This document shows, piece after piece, positions 3,065 through 61,803 of a DNA stretch of 64,000 nucleotides. The position numbers and the translations under genes were made by a program. The stretch is from a virus, in the IMG/VR virus record IMGVR_UViG_3300044971_004534, one strand, 5' to 3'. The notes under the pieces were generated by a model, which made no database searches, had not been told where the DNA came from, and saw nothing but the letters and a program-made list of their open reading frames with translations. Each line of letters begins with the position of its first letter. Position 1 is the first letter of the stretch.

Positions 3065-3204
3065 TTGTACCCCCCGATACTTTGAAGTTGCGAATATACT
3101 TAATTTAAAAATACGATATATTATTTCATTTTCCTTTTGTAATAAGCACTCATCTTATTTGATAATAGTCAGAAAGGTAATGGATTTATTTTTAGTAATA
3201 TTTT

Positions 3205-5904
3205 ATGTATTTAAAGTATTTTATGAATATAGAAAAAACTGCACAACTTAATTGGTTTCGAGGAATAAGGGATCGCATTCGTGGCAACAAGCCAGATGAA
3301 AGCGGTCAAGAATTGTCATTTAATGAACAAGAACTGCGTGGGCTTGAAGAAATAGAAAGAAGAAAGACTGAAGAAGAAAGAAAAAGAGTTGATAAGCTGG
3401 TCCAAGAATCAAAAGAAAGAGCTGAAAGCTTTGGTAGACCTGACAATATTCCCGGAAAATTTGAATTAAGTAGATCTAGTATTCAAAATATATTGTCTAT
3501 GGACAGAGATACTTTATGGCATAAGCTTTGTGCATCTTTTGAGAATTGTTCTCCTTATGTTTCTGAAACTACGGCACAAAGGGGAAGAATAATAAGATAT
3601 CTTGTAGACACTAGGCAAGGCGATTATCGAGGTGGCTGGGGAAGTGTGCTTAGGAGCATAGATTTTCTACTGCAAGGATTAGAATTAGATATACGTAATG
3701 CAGGCAATAATAGTAAAGCGGCAATATCTCATAATAATATGCAAGAAATTTTTACCAATAGAGATTGGCTCATGGCAAATAAAGATGGAATTCAACGAGC
3801 CTATGCACAAGCATCTCCAGACTCTATTAATAAAGAAGTTTTAAATAAATTTTTAACAAATAAACAATCGTATTATGCTCGACGTGATGCAGCTATAGAA
3901 GTATGGGCATCATTTTTAAAAAATAAATATCAATATTACTATGGAAATACATTAAGTGATCAGTATTTTTATAATATTCATCTGTATGCGGATAGGTTAT
4001 GGGAAGATTTTAAATTATATTTTCGATTGATGTCAGGTAATCTATTCCACAACATAGGCATTCAATTAGGTAAAAAATACTTACCAGAAGATATGCAATC
4101 AATTTCTGATGGTGTTCATGCAATAGATGTAAGTATGTTCGACATAGCAAAGCCAGCTAATTTAATGCAATCACGCAGTAATGCAAGGGGTGAAAATGAT
4201 ATCTTTTATAATTGGACCGTGAATAAATGGAAAGAATTTGTAGAAGATACACATTTAATGCTAAGCGTCTTTGGATTTAATTTAAAAGGTGTGTCAAATA
4301 TTAATAATATAAATGGAGAAAATTTATATTACAATATGATGCAAAAAATAATTATGATAGAAAATATTGTTAATAGAGATCCTTTTATAAGTCATATTTT
4401 TAATAACAGTAGATTAGATTTAGGAGATAGCTATTATATATATGCACAAATTAAAGACAAAATGAGTGCTGATCATAATCCAAATAGAGAAGAATATTTA
4501 GTTTCTATATTAAATCAAATTTATGTTAATCAGCATGGAGGGTACTCAAGAGCAATATCTGAAGCTTCAGATGAAAGTTTGAGATCGGCGGCAGATAGGG
4601 TGCCATTTGCAGTAGAACATATTTTATTGCATTTAGAATTTGGTGAAAATATGTATAATGTTATTAATAATTTTGACCAATATCAATCTGCTCTAAATTC
4701 ATACAGAGAAAAACAGCATTCAGCATTAAAAAAAGTAAGAAACGTTCTAGCCAATCCTGATTTAACACAGATGTCTCCCGAAGAGGCAAGACAGTATTTT
4801 GTAGAAAAACTTAATAGACTAGCGAATAGGGAGTTTGAAGGTAGCAATATCGAAAAGGCAAAGCAAGAGCAAATTCTTGATTCTCCATTTGAGCACACAT
4901 CAGTGATAAGACCGTCTACCTTTCCTGGTCAAGCAGCATTTAATAGCAACTCCTTGCCTGAATTGCAAGGAACTCCAATTTCTTTTAATATAGCAATTTA
5001 TCCAAAAAAGAAAGAAAATGACCCGGAAAACTTTGCACAAGTTCTTGCTCCAGGTGGGCACGCACAAGATGGACTAAACTTTCATCATCAGAATATTCCG
5101 TCATTAGAAAATAAGAAATATTATAGTCATATACTTGGCTGGATAGGTGGATGGGTTGACGTAGTAGGCTCGAACATGTATATAGCAGAAATTCAAAGCG
5201 ACGTTATGCAACATACGTCTTACATGAAAGATCCAGAAAAGTCAAAAACAAAATTGAACGAAGAACTTAAAAAGCAAATGCAAGAATTGCAAAAAGAAAA
5301 AGACAATCTTGCTAAACAATCTACAGAAGGTATAGAAAAATTCTATGATAAAAGAATTGAAGAGTTAGAAAAAAAGAGAGATAGCGCAAATAATGAGGCA
5401 ATGAAGCAGCAAATGGATACTGCAATAAAAAAATTAACAGAACAAAAAAACGCTAAAGAAGATCCGTGGGTTAAACTAAGAAAAAAAATAAAAGACATAG
5501 AAAATGTTATTGTTGAAATTAAAAATCAAATTCAAGAGCTTATTGATTATGAAAGAAACACTAACGATCAATGGAGAAAAAGGCCGCAGTTTGCTGATGT
5601 AAAGTCAAAAATAGAAAATAGATTTTCTGAATATGTCGATGTTTTTTATAATGAAGCAATTTACTATTGTGCTCAACTCAAAATTAAAGGTTTATGGATA
5701 GTGCATTCAGATCTTTTAGCTGCAGTCTGGCGACATTTTGCAACGGCTGATACCGTAGAAATGTATAAGAAAATATACGACAAACGAGCGATGGAGATGG
5801 GAGCAGAAAAGAAGGGCAACTGGTGGCACTTAGATCTTACCAAGAAAATGCCTAAGTATGCAAGCACAAATTGGTATCAAAGGACTAAAAATGGGATGGT
5901 ATAA
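3205..5904 (+). CDS. large protein, paralog 1 of a tandem pair (unknown function)
   Basis: 899-aa ORF; the start may be the ATG at 3223 (MNIEKTAQLNWFRG). The C-terminal ~330 aa align with 5891..8986: FEHTS, FNIAIYPKK, GLNFH, GWIGGWVD, YIAEIQSDVMQ, ENRFSEYVDVFYNE, MYKKIYD, WWHLDL, MPKYAS, NWYQ. Confidence 0.85.
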   Translation: MYLKYFMNIEKTAQLNWFRGIRDRIRGNKPDESGQELSFNEQELRGLEEIERRKTEEERKRVDKLVQESKERAESFGRPDNIPGKFELSRSSIQNILSMDRDTLWHKLCASFENCSPYVSETTAQRGRIIRYLVDTRQGDYRGGWGSVLRSIDFLLQGLELDIRNAGNNSKAAISHNNMQEIFTNRDWLMANKDGIQRAYAQASPDSINKEVLNKFLTNKQSYYARRDAAIEVWASFLKNKYQYYYGNTLSDQYFYNIHLYADRLWEDFKLYFRLMSGNLFHNIGIQLGKKYLPEDMQSISDGVHAIDVSMFDIAKPANLMQSRSNARGENDIFYNWTVNKWKEFVEDTHLMLSVFGFNLKGVSNINNINGENLYYNMMQKIIMIENIVNRDPFISHIFNNSRLDLGDSYYIYAQIKDKMSADHNPNREEYLVSILNQIYVNQHGGYSRAISEASDESLRSAADRVPFAVEHILLHLEFGENMYNVINNFDQYQSALNSYREKQHSALKKVRNVLANPDLTQMSPEEARQYFVEKLNRLANREFEGSNIEKAKQEQILDSPFEHTSVIRPSTFPGQAAFNSNSLPELQGTPISFNIAIYPKKKENDPENFAQVLAPGGHAQDGLNFHHQNIPSLENKKYYSHILGWIGGWVDVVGSNMYIAEIQSDVMQHTSYMKDPEKSKTKLNEELKKQMQELQKEKDNLAKQSTEGIEKFYDKRIEELEKKRDSANNEAMKQQMDTAIKKLTEQKNAKEDPWVKLRKKIKDIENVIVEIKNQIQELIDYERNTNDQWRKRPQFADVKSKIENRFSEYVDVFYNEAIYYCAQLKIKGLWIVHSDLLAAVWRHFATADTVEMYKKIYDKRAMEMGAEKKGNWWHLDLTKKMPKYASTNWYQRTKNGMV

Positions 5905-8900
5905 GTTTGCACAACTTCATGCAATGAAGTGCTCTCCAGTAAACTTGAAAAAGTTACTGCAATTTGCACACACTCCAGGACAGGCTTATTTGTTCGAGAT
6001 GGGCGAAGAACATTCTGCTATGCAAAAACACATAGAAAGACTTGGCGGAAAAAGATATAAAATTCAATTTTTACTCAACACGTTTGATGCAATGCTTACC
6101 GATCTAGATAACACAAAATTAGATTTTGAAGTAGATCAAGATAGGATTGCAAATCGCATAGATTCCGACTATGTAGAAGAATCATATGGTTATATTTTTG
6201 ATGAAGATGACACTAAGTTTTGGGAAAACATAGATGGCATAAATGATCAAGTTTTAGAATTTATTGAAGAATCTTGGGATGTTTCTGAAGATGACTTTGA
6301 GAGTCGCTTATTTCATTATCCAGTAAGTAGTCGTGAACCAAATAATTCAAAAGAACTCGTTAGTCTCAAAGACATTTCAGAAGAACTGTCTAGTTTTGCG
6401 TATTTTGGAGATATGATTTCTTGCATAGGCAATTTGAAACATGATAAATATGTAGCTCGTGATATCATGAGAGAAATAGCGGATATAGATATTGATTTAA
6501 GGTCAATGGGAGAATCAGCAACCGGCATTCATGTTCATACGTGGGCTAAAAATAAAGGCATTGATCTGACGCTTGCTGTGGTTCAAAAAGCAGCAGGTGG
6601 AGAACAAAATGTTGAGATCGCAAAATACGATCCAGATTCAGCAAAACAAATAGCACAAAAAGCTTACTCTAATGTTGCAAATTCTTGGGTTGACAGTATA
6701 GAAAAATTACCACATTCTAAAACAGATTTAGAAGAAGCAATTGAAGAAGCATTCAGAGATCAGGTAAAAGAATCATGGTGGGAGTCTAACAAACAACGCT
6801 TTATGGAAGATGCAGTTGATAATGAAATTGAAAGTACTGCGGATTCATTTAATTATGATGATAGAAGATGGGCTAAAAACACATTGCCCGCAGAATCAGT
6901 AGACCCAAACGTCAGACATCATGTAAGTAAAACTTTTACGGAAGCATTAAAGGAGCACAGCTGGCTAGATAGAGACGAAGATTCTGGTCATGTACAGGTT
7001 GAAGCTAGTAGCTATTTTGCAAACTTAGGAGTTAAAGATTGGAGTAAAATAGCGGATGATATACAGGAAATGGCGGATGACCACGCAATGACTGGTTACG
7101 AAGATTATGTAAAAGAAATAAGATCATATACATCTATGATTAATTGGATTGTAGCAAGTGATCCAGACTTGTCTGCAATCTTTTCTGATGAAGACGCAGA
7201 CCCGACAACACTTACGCAGACTGCTACGGATTTGGGGCAAATAGTTAAAACTTCATATGAGGTTATATCTCTTATGCCTCAGGACGATGCAAGACGCATG
7301 GAGCAAAGCATAACTGCAGAAAATCCAGAGATTGAAGACTGGATTAAAGCCTTAAGAGAAAGAGAAGAAGTAGAAAGACAGGCGAGAGAAACTCAAGCTG
7401 CCATGCTTGCGGAAGAAGAGGCAAGAAAAGCTATACAAAGATCAAATAGAGAAAGAATTGAAAAAGAAGTTTCTGAAGAGTCTAAAAAAATTAATGATCC
7501 AAATATCGGCTCAAGGTCTTTCACAGAAGAGCAAAAGCAGCAGGCAAAAACTCAAAACATTATTGGTAAACCATTTGAGCACATGTCAACATTGCGGGTT
7601 GATCAAAAATACCCTGGAGTGAGCGCCTTTGTGTTAAAGCCAGTACCTATGGAAAGTGAAGTTCCTTATAAGACTTTCCATATTGCTATATATCCAAAAA
7701 AGGAGCAAAGCGATCCGACAAGACTGCATGATGTCTTTGATAGAAGTGCGGGTTTAAATTTTCATGGATTTAGTTTTCCTGAACATGTGAATGAAAATTA
7801 TTACGATCTTATTGGATGGGTTGGCGGCACTATTGACCTTTATAATAAGATAATGTACGTCACAGAAATACAAAGTGATGTAATGCAAAATACCCCTCGC
7901 ATGAAAGATGTTTCCAAGAGCATTGTTGCTTTGAACGAGGGAAAAAATAGCTTATTAGCTGAAGCTGAAAAAATAAAAACATATATTACCACAAATGATA
8001 TCAATGCATATTATGACAAGAGAATACAAGATTTAAAATTAAAAATTCAATCCATGAGTGACAGTCCTGCTGCAATGCAAATGCAGCAAGCTGTTTTAAA
8101 ATTAGAAGAGTTAAAGAATAAGGGTGTAGACCCTTTTGAAAAAGAAAGACAAAAACTACACGATATTGACAATAAACTTAAAGAGATTAATAGGCAAATA
8201 AATGATATAGAAGAATTTGATAAGAAACCTTCTGCCAAACTAAATAAACCTCATCTTTCAGAATTAAGATCTCGAATAGAAAATAGATTTACTGATTGGG
8301 TAGATACCTTCTATAATGAAATATTTATGTATTGTTCTCGCTTAGGAATAAAACATTTATATATAGCAGCTTCTTCTTATTTGTATCTAACATGGAGACA
8401 GTATGCCAAGGCATCTACACTAGAATTGTATAAAAAGATATATGATACAAAGGCTGAGAAGTACGGAATGCGTAAAGTACATTATAAGGGTGTCACGTAT
8501 TGGCATTTAGATCTATCAGAAAACATGCCAAAGTTTGCGAGCAAAGAAAGGTTACAAATGTCTAAAAATAATTGGTATAGGCAAATTAAAACTGCAATGG
8601 ATTTTAGCAGTATTTACATTGATGATATAAAAAGAAAATTTTCTAATGGAGAGATTACGGAAGAGCAAATGCAAGCGCAGATACGTGAAAGATATATGGA
8701 ACACACACAAGATCCAACTACTCGTGACCCAAAACTGTTTATTATAGAAGCAAAAACTTTCTTTGATACGATTAAGCATATTGAAGGCAGAGAAAGGGGT
8801 GGAGAAGATTCTGAGTTTTCAAAAGCTCAATTTATGAGGGAAGCATTGGGTCAGTTTTTAGAATTTAATGGTAAGAAATATACAGACAGAGACGGCAAGC

Positions 8901-8986
8901 TAGAAGAGCCATTTAAATCAATACTTCAAAGATTGCTTATACAGAAATTTAATTACGACATGGATTTAGATGAAATGGTAGAGTGA
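5891..8986 (+). CDS. large protein, paralog 2 of a tandem pair; N-terminal MGWYKFAQ tag
   Basis: Listed ORF 5858..8986. The ATG at 5891 gives MGWYKFAQ and a 14-nt overlap with the upstream stop. It shares FEHMS, FHIAIYPKK, GLNFH, GWVGGTID, YVTEIQSDVMQ, ENRFTDWVDTFYNE, LYKKIYD, YWHLDL, MPKFAS and NNWYRQ with paralog 1. Confidence 0.85.
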   Translation: MGWYKFAQLHAMKCSPVNLKKLLQFAHTPGQAYLFEMGEEHSAMQKHIERLGGKRYKIQFLLNTFDAMLTDLDNTKLDFEVDQDRIANRIDSDYVEESYGYIFDEDDTKFWENIDGINDQVLEFIEESWDVSEDDFESRLFHYPVSSREPNNSKELVSLKDISEELSSFAYFGDMISCIGNLKHDKYVARDIMREIADIDIDLRSMGESATGIHVHTWAKNKGIDLTLAVVQKAAGGEQNVEIAKYDPDSAKQIAQKAYSNVANSWVDSIEKLPHSKTDLEEAIEEAFRDQVKESWWESNKQRFMEDAVDNEIESTADSFNYDDRRWAKNTLPAESVDPNVRHHVSKTFTEALKEHSWLDRDEDSGHVQVEASSYFANLGVKDWSKIADDIQEMADDHAMTGYEDYVKEIRSYTSMINWIVASDPDLSAIFSDEDADPTTLTQTATDLGQIVKTSYEVISLMPQDDARRMEQSITAENPEIEDWIKALREREEVERQARETQAAMLAEEEARKAIQRSNRERIEKEVSEESKKINDPNIGSRSFTEEQKQQAKTQNIIGKPFEHMSTLRVDQKYPGVSAFVLKPVPMESEVPYKTFHIAIYPKKEQSDPTRLHDVFDRSAGLNFHGFSFPEHVNENYYDLIGWVGGTIDLYNKIMYVTEIQSDVMQNTPRMKDVSKSIVALNEGKNSLLAEAEKIKTYITTNDINAYYDKRIQDLKLKIQSMSDSPAAMQMQQAVLKLEELKNKGVDPFEKERQKLHDIDNKLKEINRQINDIEEFDKKPSAKLNKPHLSELRSRIENRFTDWVDTFYNEIFMYCSRLGIKHLYIAASSYLYLTWRQYAKASTLELYKKIYDTKAEKYGMRKVHYKGVTYWHLDLSENMPKFASKERLQMSKNNWYRQIKTAMDFSSIYIDDIKRKFSNGEITEEQMQAQIRERYMEHTQDPTTRDPKLFIIEAKTFFDTIKHIEGRERGGEDSEFSKAQFMREALGQFLEFNGKKYTDRDGKLEEPFKSILQRLLIQKFNYDMDLDEMVE

Positions 8987-9030
8987 TTTCTACGACAAAT
9001 AAGTAAAAGCTCTATCATAGGAGAACTTAC

Positions 9031-9174
9031 ATGGGAAAAAATGTTAGAAATAATTACAGCGACAATGGCATGACTAGAAGAAACTGGAAGGCAAAAATGA
9101 TGAAGAAAAAGCATGACCGAATAAGAAATCTTGAAGGCTGCAATGCAAGAAAGCAAGCCGAAAACCCTCAGTAA
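9031..9174 (+). CDS. small basic protein (47 aa), below the ORF-track cutoff
   Basis: MGKNVRNNYSDNGMTRRNWKAKMMKKKHDRIRNLEGCNARKQAENPQ. AGGAGAA lies 6 nt upstream of the ATG, and a terminator hairpin overlaps the stop. Confidence 0.4.
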   Translation: MGKNVRNNYSDNGMTRRNWKAKMMKKKHDRIRNLEGCNARKQAENPQ

Positions 9175-9186
9175 TGAGGGTTTTTT
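9161..9186 (+). terminator. rho-independent terminator
   Basis: aaaaccctca gtaa tgagggtttt forms a 10-bp stem followed by a T run. Confidence 0.75.
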
Positions 9187-9209
9187 AATTAAAGCTTGTA
9201 ATATATTAC

Positions 9210-9662
9210 ATGTTTAAAGTAAATGATATTAAAATATCAAAATATGACTGGATCAATATCGGCATACATGCTGGTTGGATCAAGACATCTCATATGGGGC
9301 ACGCTCCAAATGTCTACGATATGACTGCGCATATGTTGCATTACAGAAGCTTGTACGAAGAACACATCAGTCCTGTTATAAAAAAATTGGCAGTTCATTT
9401 GCAAAAAGGTCTTTTTAATAAAGAAATGGCTTTGGCTTCTTTTGAAAGAATTGCTCATAAAGGAATAGAAATGTATATTAAGGAGCATGGTGAAATAGAC
9501 GTGACTCCAATGATTGTAAGATCTATAGCTGAAAACTTATTAGACAACTACATGGAAGAGATAACAGATGAGCTTTTGACTATAAGTGACGAAAATATTG
9601 TGTCGAAAAATAAGGATGAGAAGAAAAAAGCTCCCAATAAACGCAGAGACCGTAATCCATAG
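9210..9662 (+). CDS. hypothetical protein with N-terminal W-x3-G-x3-GW tag
   Basis: N-terminus MFKVNDIKISKYDWINIGIHAGWIKTSHMG matches the K[ILM]S..[DE]W...G...GW motif shared with 20639, 21839, 28060, 47729, 48968 and 49758. Confidence 0.7.
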   Translation: MFKVNDIKISKYDWINIGIHAGWIKTSHMGHAPNVYDMTAHMLHYRSLYEEHISPVIKKLAVHLQKGLFNKEMALASFERIAHKGIEMYIKEHGEIDVTPMIVRSIAENLLDNYMEEITDELLTISDENIVSKNKDEKKKAPNKRRDRNP

Positions 9663-9930
9663 CAGATACGGTCAACCTAGATACATAACAAGAGTTTCTA
9701 AAAAAGAATACCTCATACGTGGGGTGTCTAGTTTTATTAGAATGGGATACTCTGATGACTTAAAAGCTGAGTATGAATTTGTGGACTTTGACGGCGGACC
9801 TTTCCTTCAGGTTGGCGACATACTGCTTATGAATGTGCAGTATCAAGAAAATAAAAAAATAGTATCGCTTAAGCCAAGTGATAGCCCTCAAGAAGGCGAT
9901 ATGACTGCTGTACTTGTGGAGGTAGAATGA
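9616..9930 (+). CDS. hypothetical protein (start uncertain)
   Basis: Listed ORF 9586..9930 starts at a GTG. The first ATG at 9616 overlaps the upstream gene by 47 nt in the +1 frame. The 3' end is coupled (ATGA) to the next gene. Confidence 0.5.
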   Translation: MRRKKLPINAETVIHSRYGQPRYITRVSKKEYLIRGVSSFIRMGYSDDLKAEYEFVDFDGGPFLQVGDILLMNVQYQENKKIVSLKPSDSPQEGDMTAVLVEVE

Positions 9931-12594: not shown

Positions 12595-13212
12595 ATGGCT
12601 AATTCAAAAACACTTTATATCATGAGAGGACTGCCTGGCAGTGGCAAAAGTGCCGTTGCAGAAGTTTTAGCTCCAGGAAACGTATATGCTGCTGACGACT
12701 TTCCTGGTTTGTATGGAAAAGATATGAGCTTTAATCCATCTCTGCTAGGAAAGGCGCATGCAGCAACGCAAAGCAAAGTAATTGAGGCTATGGATCGCGG
12801 TGAGCCCAAGATAGCATTGGCCAATACCAACACCCAACACTGGGAGATGGCTCCTTATGTGAAAGCAGCACAAGAAAAAGGCTATTATGTAACTTTTGTG
12901 CATGTTGAGGGAACGGTTGCACCTACTGGAAGTAGTACAAAAAACATTCATGGAGTACCAGATGAAGCTCTTTCAAGAATGAAGGCTCGTTTTGAGCCAT
13001 TTGACCCAGCTAGGCGTCTTGAAGAAAGATCTCCGATGCCACCCAAGAAAGAAAGTCAGGAACATATGAGTTGGTACAAAGAAGCTAAGAAGAAAAAAGA
13101 ATATAATCCTAACCCATGGGCTGTTTGCACAGAATCTGTTGGTAGAGAAGATAAGAAGAAGTATGAAAGTTGCGTAATGCAGGTAAAAAAGAAACAGGGT
13201 AAAAAGAAATGA
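12595..13212 (+). CDS. P-loop kinase (AAA_33 / polynucleotide-kinase-like) fused in frame to a small basic WYK/NPWAVC module
   Basis: Walker A in YIMRGLPGSGKSAVAE, and ALANTNTQHW typical of predicted kinases. The C-terminal 48 aa are MSWYKEAKKKKEYNPNPWAVCTESVGREDKKKYESCVMQVKKKQGKKK. Confidence 0.7.
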   Translation: MANSKTLYIMRGLPGSGKSAVAEVLAPGNVYAADDFPGLYGKDMSFNPSLLGKAHAATQSKVIEAMDRGEPKIALANTNTQHWEMAPYVKAAQEKGYYVTFVHVEGTVAPTGSSTKNIHGVPDEALSRMKARFEPFDPARRLEERSPMPPKKESQEHMSWYKEAKKKKEYNPNPWAVCTESVGREDKKKYESCVMQVKKKQGKKK

Positions 13213-13599: not shown

Positions 13600-14589
13600 A
13601 TGGCAAAAAATATACCGTCCTTAATTAGCTGGAACAAGCTTGCAGAGAACATTGTAAAAAGAGAAGATTTAATCAAAACAGCTGCAAAAAAAGAAAAAGA
13701 TTCAGACTACGACGATAAGGGCAACAAAAAAATTGTTACAGACTCTGGCGGAAGAGAATTTGGGCCCAGAAAAGGACTTGAAGGACCATTTAAAGCCACA
13801 AGTGGACATAAAGGCGTATATTACTATGATCCAAAAGAAGGCAAGTACTATTGTCCATATACGGACATGTATCTTGAAGAGAAGCCAGGATCAGAGACTG
13901 TCAAGGAATCATCAGCAATATACGACGTAATCTGCAGAGATGGATCGATCAATAAAACCGTGTCAGTCATAGCAGAATCTGCATCTGAAGCTTTTAGCAA
14001 GGCTGCATCTATGTCAGATAAATACAACATTAATTGGAATAATTCAAATGTCGAAGTTGAAGCATCGTTCGAACCTTGGACAGAGATATTAAAAATTGCT
14101 AGGCACAGACATGAAAAAATGTCACTAGAAGCAGCTGTTGAAAAACTAGTGGATTCACATCTTTCGAAAGAAAACTCAGATCTACCAGAAGATGAAGATT
14201 CTAATAAGCTTTCGGTATACCTTGGCCAAGTCCACGTTATGCTCGATGTTATGGAGCGAGTCACTGGGCATGAGGTTGAAAGAGAGCAGTTGCTTAATGC
14301 AATTGCTAAAGAAGCTGCAAAGCGCAACGTGGATTTAGAGATTGGAGGACATCCAGAGGAAGCTTATCTTTTGCTTGACAAGCCAGTGATGGAGGAAATG
14401 AAGACTGCCGCAAAAAAGAAAAAATCTAAAGCAGGCAAAAATAAGCCGACCAATCCATCTTTGTGGGCAAGAGCTAAAGCAGCTGCAAAGGCAAAGTTTG
14501 ACGTATATCCTAGTGCATATGCAAACGGCTGGGCTGTTCAGTGGTATAAAAAGCGCGGTGGAGGATGGCGAAAGGGTAAAAAGAAGTAA
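13600..14589 (+). CDS. hypothetical protein with conserved basic C-terminal PSAYANGW..WYKKRGG motif
   Basis: AGGAGAAAACT lies before the ATG. The C-terminus NPSLWARAKAAAKAKFDVYPSAYANGWAVQWYKKRGGGWRKGKKK is a motif I recall from phage and giant-virus proteins. The N-terminus SLISWNKLAEN resembles the tag. Confidence 0.7.
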   Translation: MAKNIPSLISWNKLAENIVKREDLIKTAAKKEKDSDYDDKGNKKIVTDSGGREFGPRKGLEGPFKATSGHKGVYYYDPKEGKYYCPYTDMYLEEKPGSETVKESSAIYDVICRDGSINKTVSVIAESASEAFSKAASMSDKYNINWNNSNVEVEASFEPWTEILKIARHRHEKMSLEAAVEKLVDSHLSKENSDLPEDEDSNKLSVYLGQVHVMLDVMERVTGHEVEREQLLNAIAKEAAKRNVDLEIGGHPEEAYLLLDKPVMEEMKTAAKKKKSKAGKNKPTNPSLWARAKAAAKAKFDVYPSAYANGWAVQWYKKRGGGWRKGKKK

Positions 14590-16963: not shown

Positions 16964-19900
16964 TTAAATGTTTTTAACAAAATTATACCATCTATTGTAG
17001 CTTGCTCTCTTTCTTCGTGGGCTAAGTCCTCCAATAAGCTTCTTTCCAAACTCTATTTCTGTTTTTGATTGTTCTGCATCAAGGGCCTTAAGCCTTATTT
17101 CTCTTTCTCTTATTTCATTCAATATTTTAATTCTAAGTTCGGATCTAGAATGACCATCCAAAACGTATTGATTTTCAATATCTCTAAGTTTTGATATTTC
17201 CTCAGCAATAGCTAGTTTTTGCTGCAATATGTCATAAAGTCTTTCATCTTCTTCCGTGTCAAGAAGCATATAGTTTACATGATTGTCAGTTAAACTGTTA
17301 ATCCTATAAAATCTACCTTTTGCCTGAGTATCGGAAACTGGAGTCTGAGGCAAATCATTAAAGATTACAAAATCTGCAGTATTTTCTAAACTTAAGCCTG
17401 TACCTCCAGCACTGAAAGAAATGATTATGGCCGCATATTGAGATTGGTCGTAATTTTTCATAAACTCGTCAACATGCATCATTCTATGAGATGGGTTTTC
17501 TTCACCATGCAAAAAGTATACATACTTATTTTTAAATGGCGAATTTTCCGGGAATTGCTTTAATGCATTTTCAATCATTTGCTTCATTGCCTGTCCAGCT
17601 TCGATATTGTCTGTAAAAATACCAACTCTTTTACCACTCATTAACTTTTCTATGGCCTGCCTTGCGCTCAATGGAGCTTTTGCTCTTGCAAGAGATCTTC
17701 TGATAATGCCATAGGCAACAAGTGGATGCTCTAAAGTTCCTCGCATCATTGCTGATTCAAATTCTGCATTTCTAATTTCCATAAAAGAAGAAAGAACATT
17801 TGGGTCATTACTGACAGAATCTTTCACAATTTGTTTTGGAAGCGCTGGCCTAGACGGATCAGAGTCGCGCATGTCTTCTACAATGTCATGCTTAGATCTT
17901 TGCATGTATATCTTAGACTGAACAATAGCGTCACGAATAGCTGTTCCGGTAGATGCTGAGCCTCCACTTGATACAGCAGATGCGAGCTGTGTTACGAAAG
18001 AACCATAATCCAGATCTCCAAGTGGACTATTTATTGCGCGCAATTGATTATATAAATCTTGCTCTTTATTGGCAACGATAGTAGCAGAAGCACCCCAAAC
18101 ATTGCTTGCACCATTTGTGACTATTTGTGTATTAAATGTAGTGAAGTTTGCTTCGTGTTCATCATCCAGCGTTTCGGCTTTATCATCTGGGTCTCCATTT
18201 TTTACAGTGTGTACTTCGTCAAGTATAACTACATCTAACACACCCAGTTTAGAAAGTGCATTGAAATATGCTGTGAGTATGTTTCTTTTTCCCTCTTCTC
18301 CGTACTGTAGTGCTCCAGACCTACCGCCCTTAGTCCCTTCAAGTTCTAATTTTTTTGATTCAAGATTTGATTTTTCTTCAACTGAAATATTCGGGTCTTG
18401 CAATTTATACATAATTTCATCAAGAGTGCTTGTTTTTTGTAGTCTCTCTTCCTGCCTTGCTATAAAGGACTGGTAAAAATTAACTTTGGAATCAACAGCA
18501 TCTCTTATCAAGGAACGAACTTTTTGCATTGCATCTGCCACATTTGTCAAATTCTTGGGATTTTCAAATGCAACCTTAACAACCTCAACCGCTGTTGATT
18601 TTGCTAAGCTTTCTGCATCTTTATCAATTTCTTTTTCTTTGAACCAAGACGAATCTCGGCTATTAAGGTACAAGCTTGGGTGTTTAGAGCTAATCTTAAC
18701 ATTGGTGTTTAAATAAGCTTGAACTGCATCCTTAATAGCTTTATTTTTATCCAGTCCCATATTATTAGCATTAATTACATTACTAATAGAAGCAAACATA
18801 TCTTGTACAATTTGTTCAGCATAGGAAAGAGATCTATTCATAATCATTTGATAAGCTGAAGATATGCTTTGTCTTCTTGCAATCAAGCTTCTTAGAATTT
18901 GCGGTCTTGGAGGTATGGCAAATTTTTCGTAGTTCAAAACACACCACTTCCAGTTGGGAACTGGTATTTTAGCATTTTGATTTTCATCAAATATTTTTGT
19001 GGGATGATCAAACTGCTTTAAATATTCAAATAACTCATCACCAGTCCATATCTGTTCTGGAGAAACTCCAGTATAATATTCTATTTCTTTTTTAAACTGC
19101 GGAACAACAGCAGACTTTGTTAAAACAACTGCCTTCATGTCTTTGTTCAACTTCTTTGCATCTGTTTTAAGTCTTAGGTGACCCGCAACAATAGCTTGAA
19201 GAGTTTTGCCAACTCCCGTTTCATCCCCAAGTATCGCATGAGTTCTTGAATATAAAAACTTTATGCCTTCAATTTGTTTTGGATATATTTGCACATTGTC
19301 TATATTAGCTTGCGGATTACGAGAAAGAGCCTTTTTCTGCAACCCACTGTTGGCTACTGCTTTTACTGCTTGTTCAAAATCCCCTTCAGATTTATAGCCA
19401 TCGCCATCAATAATGCCTTCAAATCTTGCAGTTTTTGGATCAACGTAAGACTTTTTGCGAGGATCGTAAAAAAGTCCACTATTGAAGTCTTTGAATACAA
19501 GAGCAACAAGTTTGTCAACTTTAACACCTCTAGTTCCGCAAATAGTAATGAATCTTTGGAAATCGCTTGGATCTCCTCTTACATACCAACCTTTCGCCGT
19601 AGCCTGTATGTCTGTTGTTTTATGTATGCGGCACAATCTTTTTCTTGGGATAGACCTGCCTCCTTCATCAAAAAGCTCTCTTGAGTAATTGGGATCGTCT
19701 GTAACTCCTGTAAATGCAAATGTTAAGCACTCAACGATATCTAACTGCCTTGGATACGGCACATTGACAATATTTGGGATGCTAATTCTGTACATCCAAT
19801 TTTTATTGGTTTCTTCAAAAATAGATTTAGCTTCTACCTCTGCAAAATTTCTTATGTCTGTAGACTCTTTAATATTTAAAAGATGGGAATCTGCATTGTC

Positions 19901-20569
19901 AACAGTGTCTATATCCCATCCATTTTCTACTAATTCTTGCAAAAGATGACTGTACTGCTCCGAAGTAATTACCTCAACAACATTAGTTGGCTTAGTAAGT
20001 CTGTCTCTCACTGTAGAAACAATTCCTACTTCCGTAAAAATTCTTAATAAGTCCATATTGTCAGTTGCAATTTTGGGTGCAATTATAAGATTTTTCCAGT
20101 TTTTGTCATCGTTTTTATTTAAAAATTCAAATTTATCAAATTTTTTAGATTTAGGAGCTGCTTTCTTTTTTCCAGGTTTCTTTGTTTTTTGCACCGAAGG
20201 TGACAGATTTGCTGGAGTAATTGTGGAAGATGGCTCAACTGCAGTAGCCTCTGAAACTGGCTGTGAAACAGCTGATATAAACTCGTCTTGAATTTCACCT
20301 TTTCCAAACTTACTAGCATGTTCTATTAATAACTGCATGTCTCCAGGCCGAGCAGCTGGAGGTAAACCTAAAAATAAAGACAGGTCAAGGGCGTTGATGG
20401 TCCTAAGTGATTTATTTGATATGTCTTTTAATCTCTTAATTTTTTTGTCATCTAGACCCATGTTTTTAAGGTCAGATTCAGGTCTACTCAACAAATCTTT
20501 AGTAAATGTTATGATGTTTCTTCCAGACTGAAGTGTCTGAGAGGTTTTAATAATATCAAAAAGTCTCAA
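16964..20569 (-). CDS. SNF2/Rad54-family helicase with ~430-aa N-terminal extension
   Basis: Motif I ILGDETGVGKTLQAI, motif II VILDEVHTVKNG, motif III WGASATIVANK, motif V FSAGGTGLSLE, motif VI SDTQAKGRFYRINS. N-terminus MRLFDIIKTSQ and C-terminus NRWYNFVKNI are tag-like. Confidence 0.9.
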   Translation of the reverse strand: MRLFDIIKTSQTLQSGRNIITFTKDLLSRPESDLKNMGLDDKKIKRLKDISNKSLRTINALDLSLFLGLPPAARPGDMQLLIEHASKFGKGEIQDEFISAVSQPVSEATAVEPSSTITPANLSPSVQKTKKPGKKKAAPKSKKFDKFEFLNKNDDKNWKNLIIAPKIATDNMDLLRIFTEVGIVSTVRDRLTKPTNVVEVITSEQYSHLLQELVENGWDIDTVDNADSHLLNIKESTDIRNFAEVEAKSIFEETNKNWMYRISIPNIVNVPYPRQLDIVECLTFAFTGVTDDPNYSRELFDEGGRSIPRKRLCRIHKTTDIQATAKGWYVRGDPSDFQRFITICGTRGVKVDKLVALVFKDFNSGLFYDPRKKSYVDPKTARFEGIIDGDGYKSEGDFEQAVKAVANSGLQKKALSRNPQANIDNVQIYPKQIEGIKFLYSRTHAILGDETGVGKTLQAIVAGHLRLKTDAKKLNKDMKAVVLTKSAVVPQFKKEIEYYTGVSPEQIWTGDELFEYLKQFDHPTKIFDENQNAKIPVPNWKWCVLNYEKFAIPPRPQILRSLIARRQSISSAYQMIMNRSLSYAEQIVQDMFASISNVINANNMGLDKNKAIKDAVQAYLNTNVKISSKHPSLYLNSRDSSWFKEKEIDKDAESLAKSTAVEVVKVAFENPKNLTNVADAMQKVRSLIRDAVDSKVNFYQSFIARQEERLQKTSTLDEIMYKLQDPNISVEEKSNLESKKLELEGTKGGRSGALQYGEEGKRNILTAYFNALSKLGVLDVVILDEVHTVKNGDPDDKAETLDDEHEANFTTFNTQIVTNGASNVWGASATIVANKEQDLYNQLRAINSPLGDLDYGSFVTQLASAVSSGGSASTGTAIRDAIVQSKIYMQRSKHDIVEDMRDSDPSRPALPKQIVKDSVSNDPNVLSSFMEIRNAEFESAMMRGTLEHPLVAYGIIRRSLARAKAPLSARQAIEKLMSGKRVGIFTDNIEAGQAMKQMIENALKQFPENSPFKNKYVYFLHGEENPSHRMMHVDEFMKNYDQSQYAAIIISFSAGGTGLSLENTADFVIFNDLPQTPVSDTQAKGRFYRINSLTDNHVNYMLLDTEEDERLYDILQQKLAIAEEISKLRDIENQYVLDGHSRSELRIKILNEIREREIRLKALDAEQSKTEIEFGKKLIGGLSPRRKRASYNRWYNFVKNI

Positions 20570-22809: not shown

Positions 22810-23528
22810 TAAAGCATTGTCTTCCATGGCAGTCTTTCCTTTGAAATCTTATATCCAATATATCCACATTTTTTTCTTACTTCATCATATCGAAAAAGTT
22901 TGTCTGATTTTAAATTAAGATGTTCACATAAGTTTTTTATACTACTTTCCATCAGGTGTATCTCTTCAGCATTTTCTAATGCAGAACAAAGATGAAATAA
23001 ATTTATCGACTTATCATTCCTAATTTGTTTTAAAGATGTTTTTGGCTCAAGAACAAATCCTTTATCTGGATCATCATGAATAAATGCATATGCTCCATAT
23101 GCTCCAAGTTTTTCTAGCACTTTTTTTTCTTCTTCAAGATCTCTTTGTATGTAAAAACTTTTATAACGATTTTCATAAGGGACTTTTGCAATTTCATAGA
23201 TCACTTCATCAAATTTTTTATATTTTTTAAATATTTTATTATAATTATTTATAGCGGTACTACCGGCAAAAATAACTCGTGAATGTAGATTTGCTGCTAC
23301 TTTGGTGCAATAATCATATGCACCTACCCGTGATGCATTTATTGGAATAACTGTAATCGCAGGGTTATCCCGATACATCCATTTAACAAGATTGGTATAT
23401 ATTTTTGGGATATAAACATAAACTTTATCTACTGCATGCTGATTAGCATAATATCTACAAAGCCCATTACATATGATAGCGTCTCCTAAACCTTGAGGAT
23501 GCAGAATGCTTATACGTTCTTTTTTCAT
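22809..23528 (-). CDS. putative glycosyltransferase-like protein
   Basis: N-terminus ISILHPQGLGDAIICNG resembles the GT9 (heptosyltransferase) N-terminal GLGD motif. The protein is short (239 aa), so the assignment is weak. Confidence 0.35.
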   Translation of the reverse strand: MKKERISILHPQGLGDAIICNGLCRYYANQHAVDKVYVYIPKIYTNLVKWMYRDNPAITVIPINASRVGAYDYCTKVAANLHSRVIFAGSTAINNYNKIFKKYKKFDEVIYEIAKVPYENRYKSFYIQRDLEEEKKVLEKLGAYGAYAFIHDDPDKGFVLEPKTSLKQIRNDKSINLFHLCSALENAEEIHLMESSIKNLCEHLNLKSDKLFRYDEVRKKCGYIGYKISKERLPWKTML

Positions 23529-23546
23529 AGGTATTTTAGTAATTGA

Positions 23547-23556
23547 ATTGTATAAA
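23547..23556 (+). promoter_or_regulatory. candidate -10-like promoter element attGTATAAA
   Basis: gaattgtataaaagtactactg lies 34 nt upstream of the ATG at 23590, in the divergent intergenic region. Confidence 0.3.
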
Positions 23557-23589
23557 AGTACTACTGTTATTTACAAAATGGAACAAAAT

Positions 23590-24354
23590 ATGACCTGGTA
23601 TAAATTATCACAGCAATTCTCTGGCAGTACGTATACGGTTGTAGAAGGGGATAGTCTATCTGGCATAGCAAAAAAAATGCTGCATGATATTAATCGATGG
23701 CCAGAAATACAAAAACTTAATAATATTGATGACCCAAATAAGATACAGCCTGGTCAAGTTATAAAATTACCAGAAAAAAAAATACAGACAGATCAAGATA
23801 ATAAAAAAACAAAAATTCAGAATACAGCAAATAATGTTGACGTTTTTGAAGAGCTAAAAAAAGAAATCTCAAGTGGAGAGGGCAACTACTACTCATACAA
23901 TAGGGGGGTAGCTGGCGATACTCCAAAACCAAAAATAGATATTACCAAATTAACAGTGGGACAGATTATTAAAATGCAAAATACTAGTGGTTCAGACAAA
24001 AAAAAGCTTCTTTTTGCTGTTGGAAAATATCAAATGACACCAGCTACACTTGCAGAATCAATAAGGCATCCTAAAGTTGGAGTAAGCTTAAATGATTTAT
24101 TTACTCCAGATGTACAAGAAAAACTATTTATGTATTTACTATATAAAAGAGCCAACTTAATGGCCTATATAGAAGGTAGAAGTGACAACATAGATGCTGC
24201 CGTCAATGACTTGGCCGCTGAATTTGCGTCTTTACCAACAACTTCCGGCAAAGGCAGATACGATAAAGACAAGGCAGGAAATATGGCAAGTGGTGGACTT
24301 GCTAGAGTAGAAAGAATAAAGTCAATACTTTTAAATATAAAAAATAATCGTTAA
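23590..24354 (+). CDS. LysM-domain peptidoglycan hydrolase (lysozyme/transglycosylase-like) with N-terminal MTWYKLSQ tag
   Basis: LysM: YTVVEGDSLSGIAKKML...INRWPEIQKLNNIDDPNKIQPGQVIKLP. The C-terminal EISSGEGNYYSYN...AVGKYQMTPATL resembles the E-S-x-G ... G-x-YQ motif of lysozyme-like transglycosylases. Confidence 0.7.
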   Translation: MTWYKLSQQFSGSTYTVVEGDSLSGIAKKMLHDINRWPEIQKLNNIDDPNKIQPGQVIKLPEKKIQTDQDNKKTKIQNTANNVDVFEELKKEISSGEGNYYSYNRGVAGDTPKPKIDITKLTVGQIIKMQNTSGSDKKKLLFAVGKYQMTPATLAESIRHPKVGVSLNDLFTPDVQEKLFMYLLYKRANLMAYIEGRSDNIDAAVNDLAAEFASLPTTSGKGRYDKDKAGNMASGGLARVERIKSILLNIKNNR

Positions 24355-25553: not shown

Positions 25554-26648
25554 GTGTATGATTATGTAATCGTTGGATCTGGAATATTCGGAGCTGTTTG
25601 TGCAAGAGAGCTAACAGATAGTGGTAAAAAATGTCTTGTAATAGACAAGAGGAATCATATTGGCGGAAACTGTTATACTGAAAATTATAATGGCATAAAT
25701 GTTCACAAATATGGTCCACATATTTTTCATACCAATAGTGATTATGTTTGGAATTATGTAGGCAAATATTGTGCATTTCATAAATACTCTCATCGTGTCA
25801 AGGTTATTTACAAAGATAATATTTATTCTTTTCCAATAAATCTAATGACTCTTTATCAAGTGTGGGGGGTCAAAAGTCCACATGAAGCAGAAGAAAAATT
25901 AAAGTCTATTAGAAAAAATATAAAAAACCCAAAAAACATGGAAGAATGGGCTGTTTCTCAAATAGGAGAAGAACTTTATACTATATTTATACGTGATTAT
26001 ACAAAAAAACAGTGGGGAAAAGATCCTTCAGAATTACCAGCTGGCATCTTAAAAAGATTGCCAATTAGAATGAATTTTAATGATGATTATTTTGAAGACA
26101 AATATTGCGGTATACCTGTTGGGGGATACACTGGTATATTTGAAAAAATGCTTGACGGTATAGAAGTGCATTTGTCAACTGATTATTTTTCAGATAAAAA
26201 TACATTTGCAAGACTAGGTTCAAAAATAATATATACAGGGGGATTAGATGAATTTTTTGATTATGATCTTGGGAAACTTGAATGGAGAAGTTTAAAATTT
26301 GATCATTTACATCTAAATGTCAAAGACTTTCAAGGATGCTCAATTGTAAATTATCCAGAAATAAACATTCCGTATACACGTATTTGTGAGCACAAACATT
26401 TTGAAAATGGCAATCAAAGCCATACTGTAATAACAAAAGAATATCCAGACGCATGGGAAGTGGGAAAAGAAAAATACTATCCAGTAAATGATGAAAAAAA
26501 TAATATACTTTCAAAAAAGTACAAAAACAGAATAGACAACAGTAAATACATATTAGGTGGAAGGCTTGCAGACTATATGTATTATGATATGCATCAAGTT
26601 TTTGCATCAGCACTTGCTGCAGTAAAATCGGAGTTAAACAATGCATAA
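25554..26648 (+). CDS. glf: UDP-galactopyranose mutase
   Basis: GTG start preceded by AAAGGAAA. (M)YDYVIVGSGIFGAVCARELTDSGKKCLVIDKRNHIGGNCYTE...HKYGPHIFHTN...YTKKQWG...GIPVGGYT...YRSLKF...YTRICEHKHF...YYPVND...GGRLADYMYYDMHQV tracks E. coli Glf as I recall it, nearly end to end. Confidence 0.9.
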   Translation: MYDYVIVGSGIFGAVCARELTDSGKKCLVIDKRNHIGGNCYTENYNGINVHKYGPHIFHTNSDYVWNYVGKYCAFHKYSHRVKVIYKDNIYSFPINLMTLYQVWGVKSPHEAEEKLKSIRKNIKNPKNMEEWAVSQIGEELYTIFIRDYTKKQWGKDPSELPAGILKRLPIRMNFNDDYFEDKYCGIPVGGYTGIFEKMLDGIEVHLSTDYFSDKNTFARLGSKIIYTGGLDEFFDYDLGKLEWRSLKFDHLHLNVKDFQGCSIVNYPEINIPYTRICEHKHFENGNQSHTVITKEYPDAWEVGKEKYYPVNDEKNNILSKKYKNRIDNSKYILGGRLADYMYYDMHQVFASALAAVKSELNNA

Positions 26649-34228: not shown

Positions 34229-35074
34229 ATGAATTCATCGACTAATAAATATGAAAGAAAAGTACTAGATCATGGTCTAGTTAGACTGGTAGATACCATG
34301 CCAAACGCAAGCGGAGACAGTCCGTTTGAGACTGCTGTTGTACAGATGGCTAGAGTAAGTTATGGAAGCGGCACAAAGTCTTTTAGAGAAGATCTTGGCC
34401 TGGTCAAGTATTTATTAGAAAACGACCATACCAGTCCTTTTGAGGGAGTAACACTTAAATTTCACATTAAGATGCCAATATTTGTTGCAAGACAGTGGAT
34501 TAGGCATCGAACTGCAAGTGTAAATGAGTATTCGGCTAGATATTCTGTTGTTGAAGATGTTTTTTACATTCCAGATCCAACCAGATTGACCACTCAAAGC
34601 TTATCCAATAAGCAAAGTTCTTCTGACACCATGATTGAAAATGCGGAGCAGGTATCTGCAAAAATTGCCGCACATTCAAAAGAATGCTATGAGCTTTACG
34701 AAAGTTTACTTTCTCAAGGACTATCAAGAGAACTTGCAAGAATGGTTATACCTGTAAACGTGTATACAGAAATGTATTGGGTAATGAATTTGCACAATTT
34801 GCTTAAGTTTTTGAGACTAAGAATGGATCATCACGCTCAGTATGAAATTCGTGTATTTGCAGACGCAATTTTTGATATTGTAAATGAAATAGCGCCCAAC
34901 ATTATGGAAGTATGGAAGTCTTCTCAACTAGAATCTGTAAGATTTACTGGGGAAGAACTAGAGGTTATTAAAAGCATAATTTCTGTTGGGTGTGAACCAG
35001 CGATTCCAGAATCATGGAGCAAAAGAAGAAAAGACGCTTTTACTGAAAAACTAAGCGTTTTTAGTCAAGAGTAG
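34229..35074 (+). CDS. thyX: flavin-dependent thymidylate synthase
   Basis: ThyX signature RHRTASVNEYSARY (RHR..S.....S.RY), plus HTSPFEGV and the typical ~280-aa length. Confidence 0.9.
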   Translation: MNSSTNKYERKVLDHGLVRLVDTMPNASGDSPFETAVVQMARVSYGSGTKSFREDLGLVKYLLENDHTSPFEGVTLKFHIKMPIFVARQWIRHRTASVNEYSARYSVVEDVFYIPDPTRLTTQSLSNKQSSSDTMIENAEQVSAKIAAHSKECYELYESLLSQGLSRELARMVIPVNVYTEMYWVMNLHNLLKFLRLRMDHHAQYEIRVFADAIFDIVNEIAPNIMEVWKSSQLESVRFTGEELEVIKSIISVGCEPAIPESWSKRRKDAFTEKLSVFSQE

Positions 35075-35663: not shown

Positions 35664-35978
35664 ATGTTAGAACAATTTATTCTCTCCACTATAGGTGGTA
35701 TTGGAATGGCTACTCTAATTGTAGAAAAGGGCGATGACTTTCCAATTAAACCTTTTAAAAACATCGCTCACACAATAGTTAAAAAGTTGCTAGGCGACTC
35801 ATGGGCAAAGGTATTTGAATGCACTGTATGCATGTCTTTTTGGACGGCATTGCTATGTGAAGCTTTTTTGTTTATGTTTTCAAAGACTTTCACATGGCCA
35901 GTAAGCGGGTTTGCTGCTGCAGGTATTTCATTTTATCTAATTGATTTTTTGAACACCATAGACAATAGAAAAGGATGA
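35664..35978 (+). CDS. small membrane protein (DUF1360-like, from memory)
   Basis: The ATG at 35664 gives MLEQFILSTIGGIGMATLIV. The FECTVCMSFWTALLCEAFLF C..C.SFW motif and two further hydrophobic helices are present. Confidence 0.55.
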   Translation: MLEQFILSTIGGIGMATLIVEKGDDFPIKPFKNIAHTIVKKLLGDSWAKVFECTVCMSFWTALLCEAFLFMFSKTFTWPVSGFAAAGISFYLIDFLNTIDNRKG

Positions 35979-56122: not shown

Positions 56123-56163
56123 AAATAGGATTTTGATATATTTTATTATAATTATTAATTAAT

Positions 56164-57174: not shown

Positions 57175-57178
57175 AAGT

Positions 57179-57580
57179 ATGCCAATATCAGGAACGGTTA
57201 CAGTATCTGGAGTTGTTGCTCCGACTTCAACGTCGGATACTTATCCTGTTACAGACCCCAAATACGGTCTTGGTGGATTGCGAAGTATCACTGGAGGGGC
57301 TGGAGACGCCCTTACTGACATTCCATCAGCAAGACGTGAAGAAGGCATGATGGTATATGTTTCTAATACAAGTAAATATTATAAATTGGTTGGCGGCATA
57401 GCTGACGTGAACTGGACTGAATTTGTTCTTTTGCCCGTAGACGCTCACGGTAATGTGTACATTAATGGAAACTTAAAAGTTTCAGGATGGATCGAAACTG
57501 ATACAGGAATACAGGGTAATCCCTATGATGCACCAGAATATCTCCAAGATATGAACCTGGATGGAGGAACTTATTCTTAA
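57179..57580 (+). CDS. small fibre-module structural protein
   Basis: 133-aa ORF. TYPVTDPKYGLGGLRSI...IPSARREEGMMVYV...YYKLVGG...NWTEF is a pattern I recall from phage fibre-associated proteins. Confidence 0.6.
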   Translation: MPISGTVTVSGVVAPTSTSDTYPVTDPKYGLGGLRSITGGAGDALTDIPSARREEGMMVYVSNTSKYYKLVGGIADVNWTEFVLLPVDAHGNVYINGNLKVSGWIETDTGIQGNPYDAPEYLQDMNLDGGTYS

Positions 57581-61794: not shown

Positions 61795-61803
61795 GTTTTA
61801 TAA

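Follow-up and report, generated by a model that had tools for sequence, protein, structure and literature searches.

The window analyzed here, 64,000 nucleotides (nt) of viral DNA from the IMG/VR record IMGVR_UViG_3300044971_004534, raises the question of what is encoded by two giant genes that lie side by side at positions 3,205 to 8,986 and share a C-terminal domain. An earlier note, made from the letters and the open reading frames (ORFs), had pointed out this pair, called paralog 1 (p1) and paralog 2 (p2) throughout this text, and had considered a nuclease-like fold and a role as ejected virion proteins. We arrived at another answer, to which we assign a probability of roughly 55%: p1 and p2 would be translated together, would probably associate and would act during infection as transferases of the GNAT (Gcn5-related N-acetyltransferase) fold, attaching acyl or aminoacyl groups to a macromolecular target. 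Host-modifying enzymes are, in our judgment, more likely than nucleases or ejected virion proteins.

3205..5904, + strand: ORF of p1, 899 amino acids counted from the ATG at 3205
5891..8986, + strand: p2, 1031 amino acids, beginning MGWYKFAQ

The shared C-terminal domain defines a family

The C-terminal parts of p1 (residues 539-898) and p2 (residues 539-903) align over 374 amino acids with 40% identity and 59% positives (BLASTP, E = 1e-76), which is far beyond chance and bears out the claim of two adjacent giant ORFs with a common domain. Every conserved block listed in the earlier note lies inside the aligned region of both proteins, while the literal patterns of these blocks hold less strictly: 7 of the 12 occur in both proteins, 4 of the 12 in p2 only and 1 of the 12 in neither, p1 departing from them with, for example, YYSHILGW and KIENRF. 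The helical insertion within the domain is itself conserved, as seen from [FY]YDKRI and DP[WF], and the conserved blocks comprise more than coiled coil. The shared region is unclassified, having no match in Pfam, PHROGs or NCBIfam (NCBIfam was scanned with four members as well).

An exhaustive profile search of 1.84 billion protein cluster representatives revealed that the shared region defines a family. It collected 83 representatives at E ≤ 1e-3, so few that the family counts as rare; the stricter cutoffs of E ≤ 1e-10 and E ≤ 1e-30 leave 56 and 23. Close relatives of p1 and p2 come from metagenomes only. Searches of 50,697 deposited phage genomes by blastn and tblastn, with the locus, the p1 domain and the proteins P0068 and P0058 as queries, retrieved nothing, and a homologue search with the diverse family alignment returned P0068 only. 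A narrow degenerate DNA pattern scanned across GTDB genomes detected no family member; its one match, in a Lachnospiraceae metagenome-assembled genome, fell on a locus without a family ORF and was discarded as a chance match. The same pattern matched five loci in IMG/VR, one of them on the contig of a relative described below (L003). Judged from these searches, the family is undescribed, being absent from the curated libraries searched and from deposited phage genomes.

Most members are 800-1000 amino acids long and carry the domain at about residues 500-850, and others are short forms of 300-450 amino acids. The helical insertion, hereafter the arm, is 80-110 amino acids long in the family and is kept in most members; over all members its length ranges from 0 to 110 amino acids, the arm-less members being P0068, P0077, P0081 and P0090. 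P0068 consists of 213 amino acids, P0081 and P0077 are fused to LRV/HEAT repeats, P0077 having an additional repeated C-terminal unit that is MORN-like by eye, and P0090 is fused to pentapeptide repeats.

Across sequences that are merely 20-30% identical, the residues F21, P56, H66, G81, W82, G85, E98, Q100, S101, D102, Q105, T107, E122, N123, W128 and Y182 (P0068 numbering) are nearly invariant. W128 is replaced by a tyrosine in p1 (Y810), and the p1 counterparts F562, H627, G645, W646, G649, E662, Q664, S665, D666, Q669, T671, E804, N805 and Y858 are identical in both paralogs. The conserved residues are F562, H564, H627, G645, W646, G649, E662, Q664, S665, D666, Q669, T671, E804, N805, Y858 and D859 in p1, and E659, Q661, S662, D663, E797, N798, Y851 and D852 in p2, and the family signature can be written as F-[PE]-H, GW[IV]GG, E-x-Q-S-D-x-x-Q-x-T, [KR]S[KR]xEN and YD. 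The nearly invariant polar set (H66, E98, Q100, S101, D102, Q105, T107, E122, N123 and Y182) is kept entirely in p1 and p2. Since these polar residues are retained even in the arm-less members, their conservation argues for a catalytic or ligand-binding site.

The domain is predicted to have a GNAT-like fold

The AlphaFold2 model of the p1 domain, with a predicted local distance difference test score (pLDDT) of 75.5, exhibits four β-strands, a short helix, four long helices (domain residues 128-157, 161-178, 182-200 and 207-236; pLDDT about 90) and then an α-β-α-β-β portion. With the arm included, Foldseek returned mostly coiled-coil noise at E > 0.5 and a few weak matches to Gcn5, PCAF and tandem-GNAT proteins. 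Because this search was swamped by coiled-coil matches, we modeled the insertion-less P0068 with AlphaFold2, using a 30-sequence family alignment of contiguous segments, and obtained a model with a pLDDT of 83.4 and a predicted TM-score (pTM) of 0.82. In the PDB, the best 50 Foldseek matches of this model all contain a GNAT-type or related (p300/CBP) acetyltransferase domain, among them tGcn5, SpeG, YhbS, AtaT, AAC(6'), nourseothricin acetyltransferase, the GNAT domain of ICL2 and p300 (E 0.03-0.2, probability up to 0.96, target-normalised TM-score up to 0.49). Against BFVD, GNATs from Pithovirus and Marseillevirus came out on top (E = 1.2e-3 and 3.0e-3, probability 1.00), and several large uncultured-phage proteins follow further down the list. 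A natural insertion-less homolog thus had to be modeled before the structure search became informative, and an enzyme family missed by Pfam, PHROGs, NCBIfam and PDB sequences would become visible only through the fold prediction of such a relative.

The order β1-α1-α2-β2-β3-β4-α3-β5-α4-β6 predicted from the P0068 model, together with the Foldseek matches, points to a GNAT fold. We consider it likely that the domain has a GNAT-like fold into which the arm is inserted at the β4-α3 junction; in the models, the stretch of ~110 amino acids that the earlier note had called a coiled coil corresponds to this arm. The elements are located as follows.

4876..5859, + strand: GNAT-like domain of p1, approximately residues 558-885, placed by models, Foldseek and conservation
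5233..5559, + strand: helical insertion of p1, four helices between β4 and α3, residues 677-785, DPW tip at 753-755
7562..8560, + strand: GNAT-like domain of p2, approximately residues 558-890
7910..8230, + strand: helical insertion of p2, residues 674-780, DPF tip at 747-749

The same models bear on the suggestion that G-W-[IV]-G-G-x-[IV]-D ... E-I-Q-S-D forms the core of a PD-(D/E)xK-type nuclease with Gln replacing Lys. Its residues are nearly invariant, and the resemblance consists of the loose pattern D-(9-10 aa)-E-x-Q only. In both models, however, G-W-I-G-G-x-V-D and x-Y-I-x-E-I-Q-S-D build one hairpin of the GNAT-like α/β fold (β3 96-103 and β4 108-116 of the p1 domain), which puts the Asp at the far end from the Glu. 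All of the best 50 PDB matches and the best annotated BFVD matches are acetyltransferases, none having a restriction-endonuclease fold; no nuclease-fold protein occurs among the best 50 PDB or the best 50 BFVD matches, and no nuclease family was matched in Pfam, PHROGs, NCBIfam or PDB sequences. With the candidate D and E-x-Q at opposite ends of the hairpin and no nuclease among the listed Foldseek matches, we rejected the nuclease assignment, which we regard as very improbable.

The arm invites another explanation, in which p1 and p2 are non-enzymatic scaffolds: the arm and the N-terminal module (described below) would drive assembly, as in SMC/Rad50-like bridging or a replication or assembly compartment, and the GNAT-like fold, having degenerated, would serve for binding only. 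The first Foldseek run with p1 indeed gave coiled-coil heads of SMC, Rad50, JetC and Lamassu proteins, the canonical CoA motif is missing (see below), and the conservation of the arm in most members would fit. These SMC/Rad50-type matches have E > 0.5 and TM-scores of at most 0.23, however, and are driven by the helices alone, and neither Walker A, Walker B nor signature motifs are present in p1 or p2; an SMC-like ATPase was rejected on these grounds. Moreover, the invariant polar residues of the arm-less members speak for a ligand or catalytic site. A purely structural role therefore appears improbable to us.

Departures from canonical GNATs

Several observations weigh against a GNAT-type transferase. 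First, the fold similarity is moderate, with Foldseek E-values from 1e-3 to 0.2 and TM-scores of 0.25-0.55, and the strand order before β3 is unlike that of a textbook GNAT, having a helix between β2 and β3, not between β1 and β2. Second, no Pfam GNAT model was matched by p1, p2, 18 further whole members or the 35 domain sequences of alignment A3, and comparison with PDB sequence profiles, starting from the domain, from its coil-deleted version and from the alignments of both whole proteins, yielded only coiled-coil noise or maspin (E ≥ 0.026). An hhalign comparison of the family with five canonical GNATs, which can serve as a lead only, gave a probability of 0.7% and set the family α3-β5 on the GNAT α3-β5. 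Third, motif A (Q/RxxGxG/A), the pyrophosphate-binding loop at the β4-α3 junction, is absent, and the family has no conserved Gly-x-Gly/Ala. In its place stands E-x-Q-S-D-[LV]-[ML]-Q-x-T, followed by the insertion of 0-110 amino acids and then by [KR]-S-[KR]-x-E-N-x-[FY]-x-x-W. Because Q/RxxGxG/A is replaced by the family's own motif, binding of coenzyme A (CoA) by the family is at most putative. Fourth, although an invariant Glu on β4 and an invariant Tyr on α4 recall the usual GNAT base and acid and so speak for an enzyme, these putative equivalences are drawn from secondary-structure position. Finally, heterodimerization of p1 and p2 is a pure inference, and L007, from a more distant phage, holds one family copy only, so the duplication would be lineage-specific.

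Since the predicted fold is that of GNATs while the two sequence-level tests, motif A and a profile match, came out negative, we place the family as GNAT-like in fold and as a putative, highly divergent variant. We regard it as belonging to a known fold class in a strongly altered, novel form, and not as a system of a categorically new kind. With the canonical CoA motif absent, the acyl donor may be other than acetyl-CoA.

GNAT-like scaffolds without the canonical CoA loop are found in LuxI-type acyl-homoserine lactone synthases, in the FemX and L/F-transferase aminoacyl-tRNA transferases and in Mom. This general resemblance, taken with the distinct set of conserved polar residues of the family, raises the possibility of a non-acetyl-CoA donor; however, we found no sequence similarity between these proteins and the family, and none of them is among the listed Foldseek matches. 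A more far-reaching version, which we hold to be unlikely, is that the family constitutes a new phage class of GNAT-fold enzymes, in which the E-x-Q-S-D / K-S-K-x-E-N site and the arm replace the CoA loop, the donor is a non-canonical acyl or aminoacyl donor, the co-translated heterodimer of this lineage performs an undescribed modification of a host or phage macromolecule, and the N-W-[YFL] peptide described below is a docking or targeting signal.

p1 and p2 are related over their full length

The N-terminal halves of the two proteins had been described as unrelated. A comparison of p1-like and p2-like profiles by hhalign shows otherwise, with a probability of 94.6% (E = 6.5e-8, 111 columns) for an alignment of p1 residues 281-403 with p2 residues 320-435, and the p1 N-terminus matches the converged 38-sequence N-module profile with 94.2% probability. 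Of the 58 family proteins that have a long N-terminus, 38 keep the p2 N-module, among them the p1 ortholog of L003. The N-terminus of p2 is very acidic, as stated earlier (isoelectric point 4.6, net charge -52); that of p1, which had been called basic, is near neutral (isoelectric point 6.4, net charge -4). The 128 amino acids of p2 beyond the shared domain form a second conserved module, present in 45 of 94 retrieved proteins including short forms.

4045..4413, + strand: p1 N-terminal segment homologous to the p2 N-module, residues 281-403 (hhalign)
5969..7438, + strand: acidic N-module of p2, residues 27-516 (iterated hidden Markov model (HMM) search)
8597..8977, + strand: C-terminal tail module of p2, residues 903-1029

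Since the C-terminal alignment (E = 1e-76) is joined by the N-terminal profile match (94.6%), p1 and p2 are, as judged by homology, full-length tandem paralogs; in p1, the N-module has diverged and the tail has been lost. In L003 (IMGVR_UViG_3300042478_002844), the tail is encoded as its own ORF of 157 amino acids at 13836-14309, directly 3' of the p2-like gene (HMM E = 1.7e-23), an arrangement that we read as natural domain fission. The usual large form of the family, as reconstructed from these comparisons, is composed of an M-N-W-[YFL]...K.AQ motif, an N-module of ~450 amino acids, the GNAT-like domain with its arm, a second N-W-[YFL] and a tail of ~125 amino acids.

Two fixed positions of the family proteins harbor the peptide N-W-[YFL]-x-[KR]-x-x-K-x-A-[QN], which is almost never seen elsewhere in them. 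It is found at residue 2 in 22 of 96 proteins, for example as MNWFKQIFKKAQ and MNWLHKHVKLAQ, the p2 form being MGWYKFAQ and the p1 version EKTAQLNWFRG at residues 10-20, and 46 of the 96 have it directly behind the GNAT-like domain, as KYASTNWYQRTKNGMV in p1 and NNWYRQIKTAMDF in p2.

3232..3279, + strand: N-terminal N-W-F motif of p1, EKTAQLNWFRGIRDRI, residues 10-25
5854..5901, + strand: post-domain N-W-Y motif at the C-terminus of p1, KYASTNWYQRTKNGMV
8555..8599, + strand: post-domain N-W-Y motif of p2, SKNNWYRQIKTAMDF

The "WYK-type termini" of the earlier note therefore represent a genuine, non-random motif, while the tie to ejection proteins that was drawn from them is unfounded. The peptide may serve as an amphipathic element in docking, targeting or processing. 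Elsewhere in the window, motifs of this type occur in about the number expected by chance (13066 and 31217). The one at 13066 on the + strand, MSWYKEAKKKK, which resembles the N-W-Y-K motif, lies within the PNK-like ATPase gene at 12595-13212.

A conserved 14-nt overlap joins the two genes

Conservation at the N-termini helps to place the start codons. In alignment A7, residues M7, K11, A13, Q14, N16 and W17 of p1 are invariant, which favors the ATG at 3223 (M7) over that at 3205 as the probable true start of p1. The longest ORF of p2 extends from 5858 to 8986 (1042 amino acids); given the M-x-W-Y start kept across the family, p2 most likely begins at the ATG at 5891, giving the 1031 amino acids listed above. 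With this start, the end of p1 and the beginning of p2 overlap.

5891..5904, + strand: overlap of the p1 stop and the p2 start, 14 nt, ATGGGATGGTATAA, with AAGGA in front

A p1-like gene followed by a p2-like gene is also found in L001, L002 and L003. The sequence of the overlap, ATGnnATGGTATAA, is found again in L002 and L003, whose proteins are 38-50% identical to p1 and p2 of the window, and L001 has a 14-nt overlap too, as judged from its ORF coordinates. This recurring gene order and overlap suggest that p1 and p2 are probably translationally coupled and point to a joint function.

In L001 (ENA GROS21 scaffold_128), the p2 ortholog is broken into two ORFs at 6703-7320 and 7449-9734, for which a frameshift, a pseudogene or an error of assembly would each be an explanation. 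Upstream of the split p2, the p1 ortholog at 4110-6716 is intact, and the 14-nt overlap is kept.

The pair follows a divergent intergenic region of 140 bp that contains a candidate promoter.

3137..3166, + strand: possible sigma-70-like promoter upstream of p1, TTGTAA-18 nt-GATAAT, by consensus match only

Promoter-like matches in the region 5' of p1 are as numerous as expected from shuffled sequence, which makes them weak evidence. The heptamer TTGTAAT is located at 3137, 9196, 13568 and 38043 on the + strand, shortly upstream of p1, of the genes at 9210 and 13600 and of the ribonucleotide reductase gene, and may be a common -35-like promoter element; its frequent occurrence within genes weakens this reading.

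Genomic context

The window comes from a large tailed phage. One of its virion proteins shares 43-45% identity with proteins from marine cyanomyoviruses and from Puniceispirillum phage HMO-2011, and given this similarity the phage is most likely marine. The main identified genes are listed below.

12595-13212: PNK-like ATPase
16964-20569, - strand: helicase
23506-24354: endolysin/transglycosylase-like protein
34229-35074: thymidylate synthase
35975-36808, + strand: sigma-factor-like protein of the phage itself (phrog_351, E = 8e-21), encoded beside thymidylate synthase and ribonucleotide reductase
38080-40629: ribonucleotide reductase large subunit
52788-61263: tail fibre and virion proteins

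The immediate neighbors of p1 and p2 are without known function. The pair is located near the PNK-like ATPase and helicase genes, in the same window as the ribonucleotide reductase and the sigma factor, and about 44 kb from the nearest identified tail or virion genes of the window. Likewise, the distant family members have non-structural neighbors, namely nucleotide-metabolism and host-takeover genes, and no virion modules; the contigs of P0081, P0090, P0062 and P0025 are too short for a neighborhood reading. L007 has a peptide deformylase and a ribonucleotide reductase with an inserted endonuclease-like segment as neighbors. The latter gene (3513-7301, - strand) encodes a large subunit of 1262 amino acids, in which residues 736-879 are endonuclease-like (phrog_9666, phrog_4645), suggesting an intein or a homing endonuclease insertion. 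In L006 (2482-6795) and L009 (4383-8816), an ORF of 1437-1478 amino acids follows an insertion-less family member, and the 1437-amino-acid protein of L006, the copy that was scanned, has a weak tRNA-methyltransferase match. L006 also contains a Doc/Fic-like toxin gene (7006-7554; phrog_577, E = 5e-29) and a repair exonuclease, and the L006/L009 neighborhood is possibly a host-takeover gene cluster.

This context is relevant to the proposal that p1 and p2 resemble the T7 gp15/gp16 class, which the results do not support: no virion family was matched in Pfam, PHROGs or by tblastn against the 50,697 phage records, and the virion genes at 52.8-61.3 kb are distant. The likeness to gp15 and gp16 is limited to large size and phage origin, with no sequence or structural similarity and a different genomic position, and neither T7 protein is known to have a GNAT-like domain; homology to them was therefore rejected. 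In a broader form, p1 and p2 would be packaged virion proteins ejected with the DNA, the GNAT-like domain being an injected effector and the N-W-[YFL] peptides capsid-targeting or processing signals. The large size of p1 and p2 is in line with this idea, as is the placement of the short motif at the extreme N-terminus (22/96) and right after the domain (46/96). The BFVD matches include proteins named "minor capsid protein", "large polyvalent protein associated domain" and "head morphogenesis", some of them 800-1400 amino acids long, and GNAT domains are present in capsid-delivered polyvalent proteins (Iyer et al., PMC5512222). Those BFVD matches cover only the GNAT-like fold at low TM-scores, however, p1 and p2 show no homology in Pfam, PHROGs or NCBIfam to families of virion proteins, ejection proteins or MuF/portal-associated proteins, and the genes lie among replication and nucleotide-metabolism genes, far from the tail and virion genes, as do those of the distant members. 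We consider delivery with the virion unlikely; it would be compatible with an enzymatic function, only the delivery route being different.

Proposed function and comparison with known systems

The transferase reading assembles these features as follows. p1 and p2 would be co-translated through the conserved 14-nt overlap and would probably pair, possibly via their helical arms. The pair would act as an acyl- or aminoacyl-group transferase on a macromolecule, serving either host takeover or the protection of a phage component, and the target would be recognized by the variable N-modules, or by the repeat-domain fusions in other members.

Among the closest known systems is the GNAT superfamily (Gcn5/PCAF, SpeG/SSAT, RimI, the AtaT/TacT toxins and AAC(6')), with which the family model shares an antiparallel β-sheet, a long helix after β4 and then β5-α4-β6. 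The family differs from it in the lack of detectable sequence or profile similarity and of motif A, in its own signature, in the arm of 80-110 amino acids exactly at β4-α3, and in the embedding of the domain in multi-module proteins of 900-1000 amino acids. Precedents exist for phage GNATs that modify host proteins: Rac of phiKMV acts on the alpha subunit of RNA polymerase, and GNAT domains are found in polyvalent proteins (Iyer et al. 2021, PMC7824862; Iyer et al. 2017, PMC5512222). In both, as here, a phage-encoded GNAT-type fold occurs in or beside large proteins, and a role of p1 and p2 in host-protein modification is plausible. The known effectors, however, are RimI-like by sequence and are fused to ADP-ribosyltransferase, peptidase or similar domains, whereas the p1/p2 family is not recognizable by sequence. 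Polyvalent proteins are defined by several recognizable conflict-related domains in one polypeptide (methylase, ADP-ribosyltransferase, peptidase, helicase, ArdC and LPD domains), and no Pfam domain, LPD or other, was found in p1 or p2, which have only the GNAT-like fold in common with some polyvalent proteins.

If p1 and p2 are active transferases, they would represent a new branch beside the Alt/Mod ADP-ribosyltransferases, Rac, Mom and the polyvalent-protein GNATs, with an unusual donor-binding site. About 6 kb of uncultured marine phage dark matter is turned here into a testable hypothesis, for which the conserved overlap, the full-length duplication with tail loss, the tail fission in one relative and the twice-repeated terminal motif provide experimental handles.

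Other features of the window

A UDP-galactopyranose mutase gene (glf) is located at 25554-26648 on the + strand (phrog_9677, E = 2e-131); its identity with the glf found in Streptococcus suis phages and in gut "Bacteriophage sp." contigs is 48-53%. The gene, which lies among several unannotated ORFs at 24-31 kb, probably has an auxiliary role in glycan modification.

At 57631-61263 on the + strand, a tail-fibre-like protein of 1210 amino acids carries an N-terminal Mtd_N domain (major tropism determinant N-terminal domain, E = 8e-6). In the region 3' of this gene, at 61800-64000 on the + strand, a 222-nt unit is present in three diverged copies (63-75% identical; 62041-62262, 62296-62517 and 63517-63738) together with a 57-nt repeat, and no closed + strand ORF exceeds 78 amino acids. 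This region is probably a repeat-containing fibre-like gene that runs past the end of the window.

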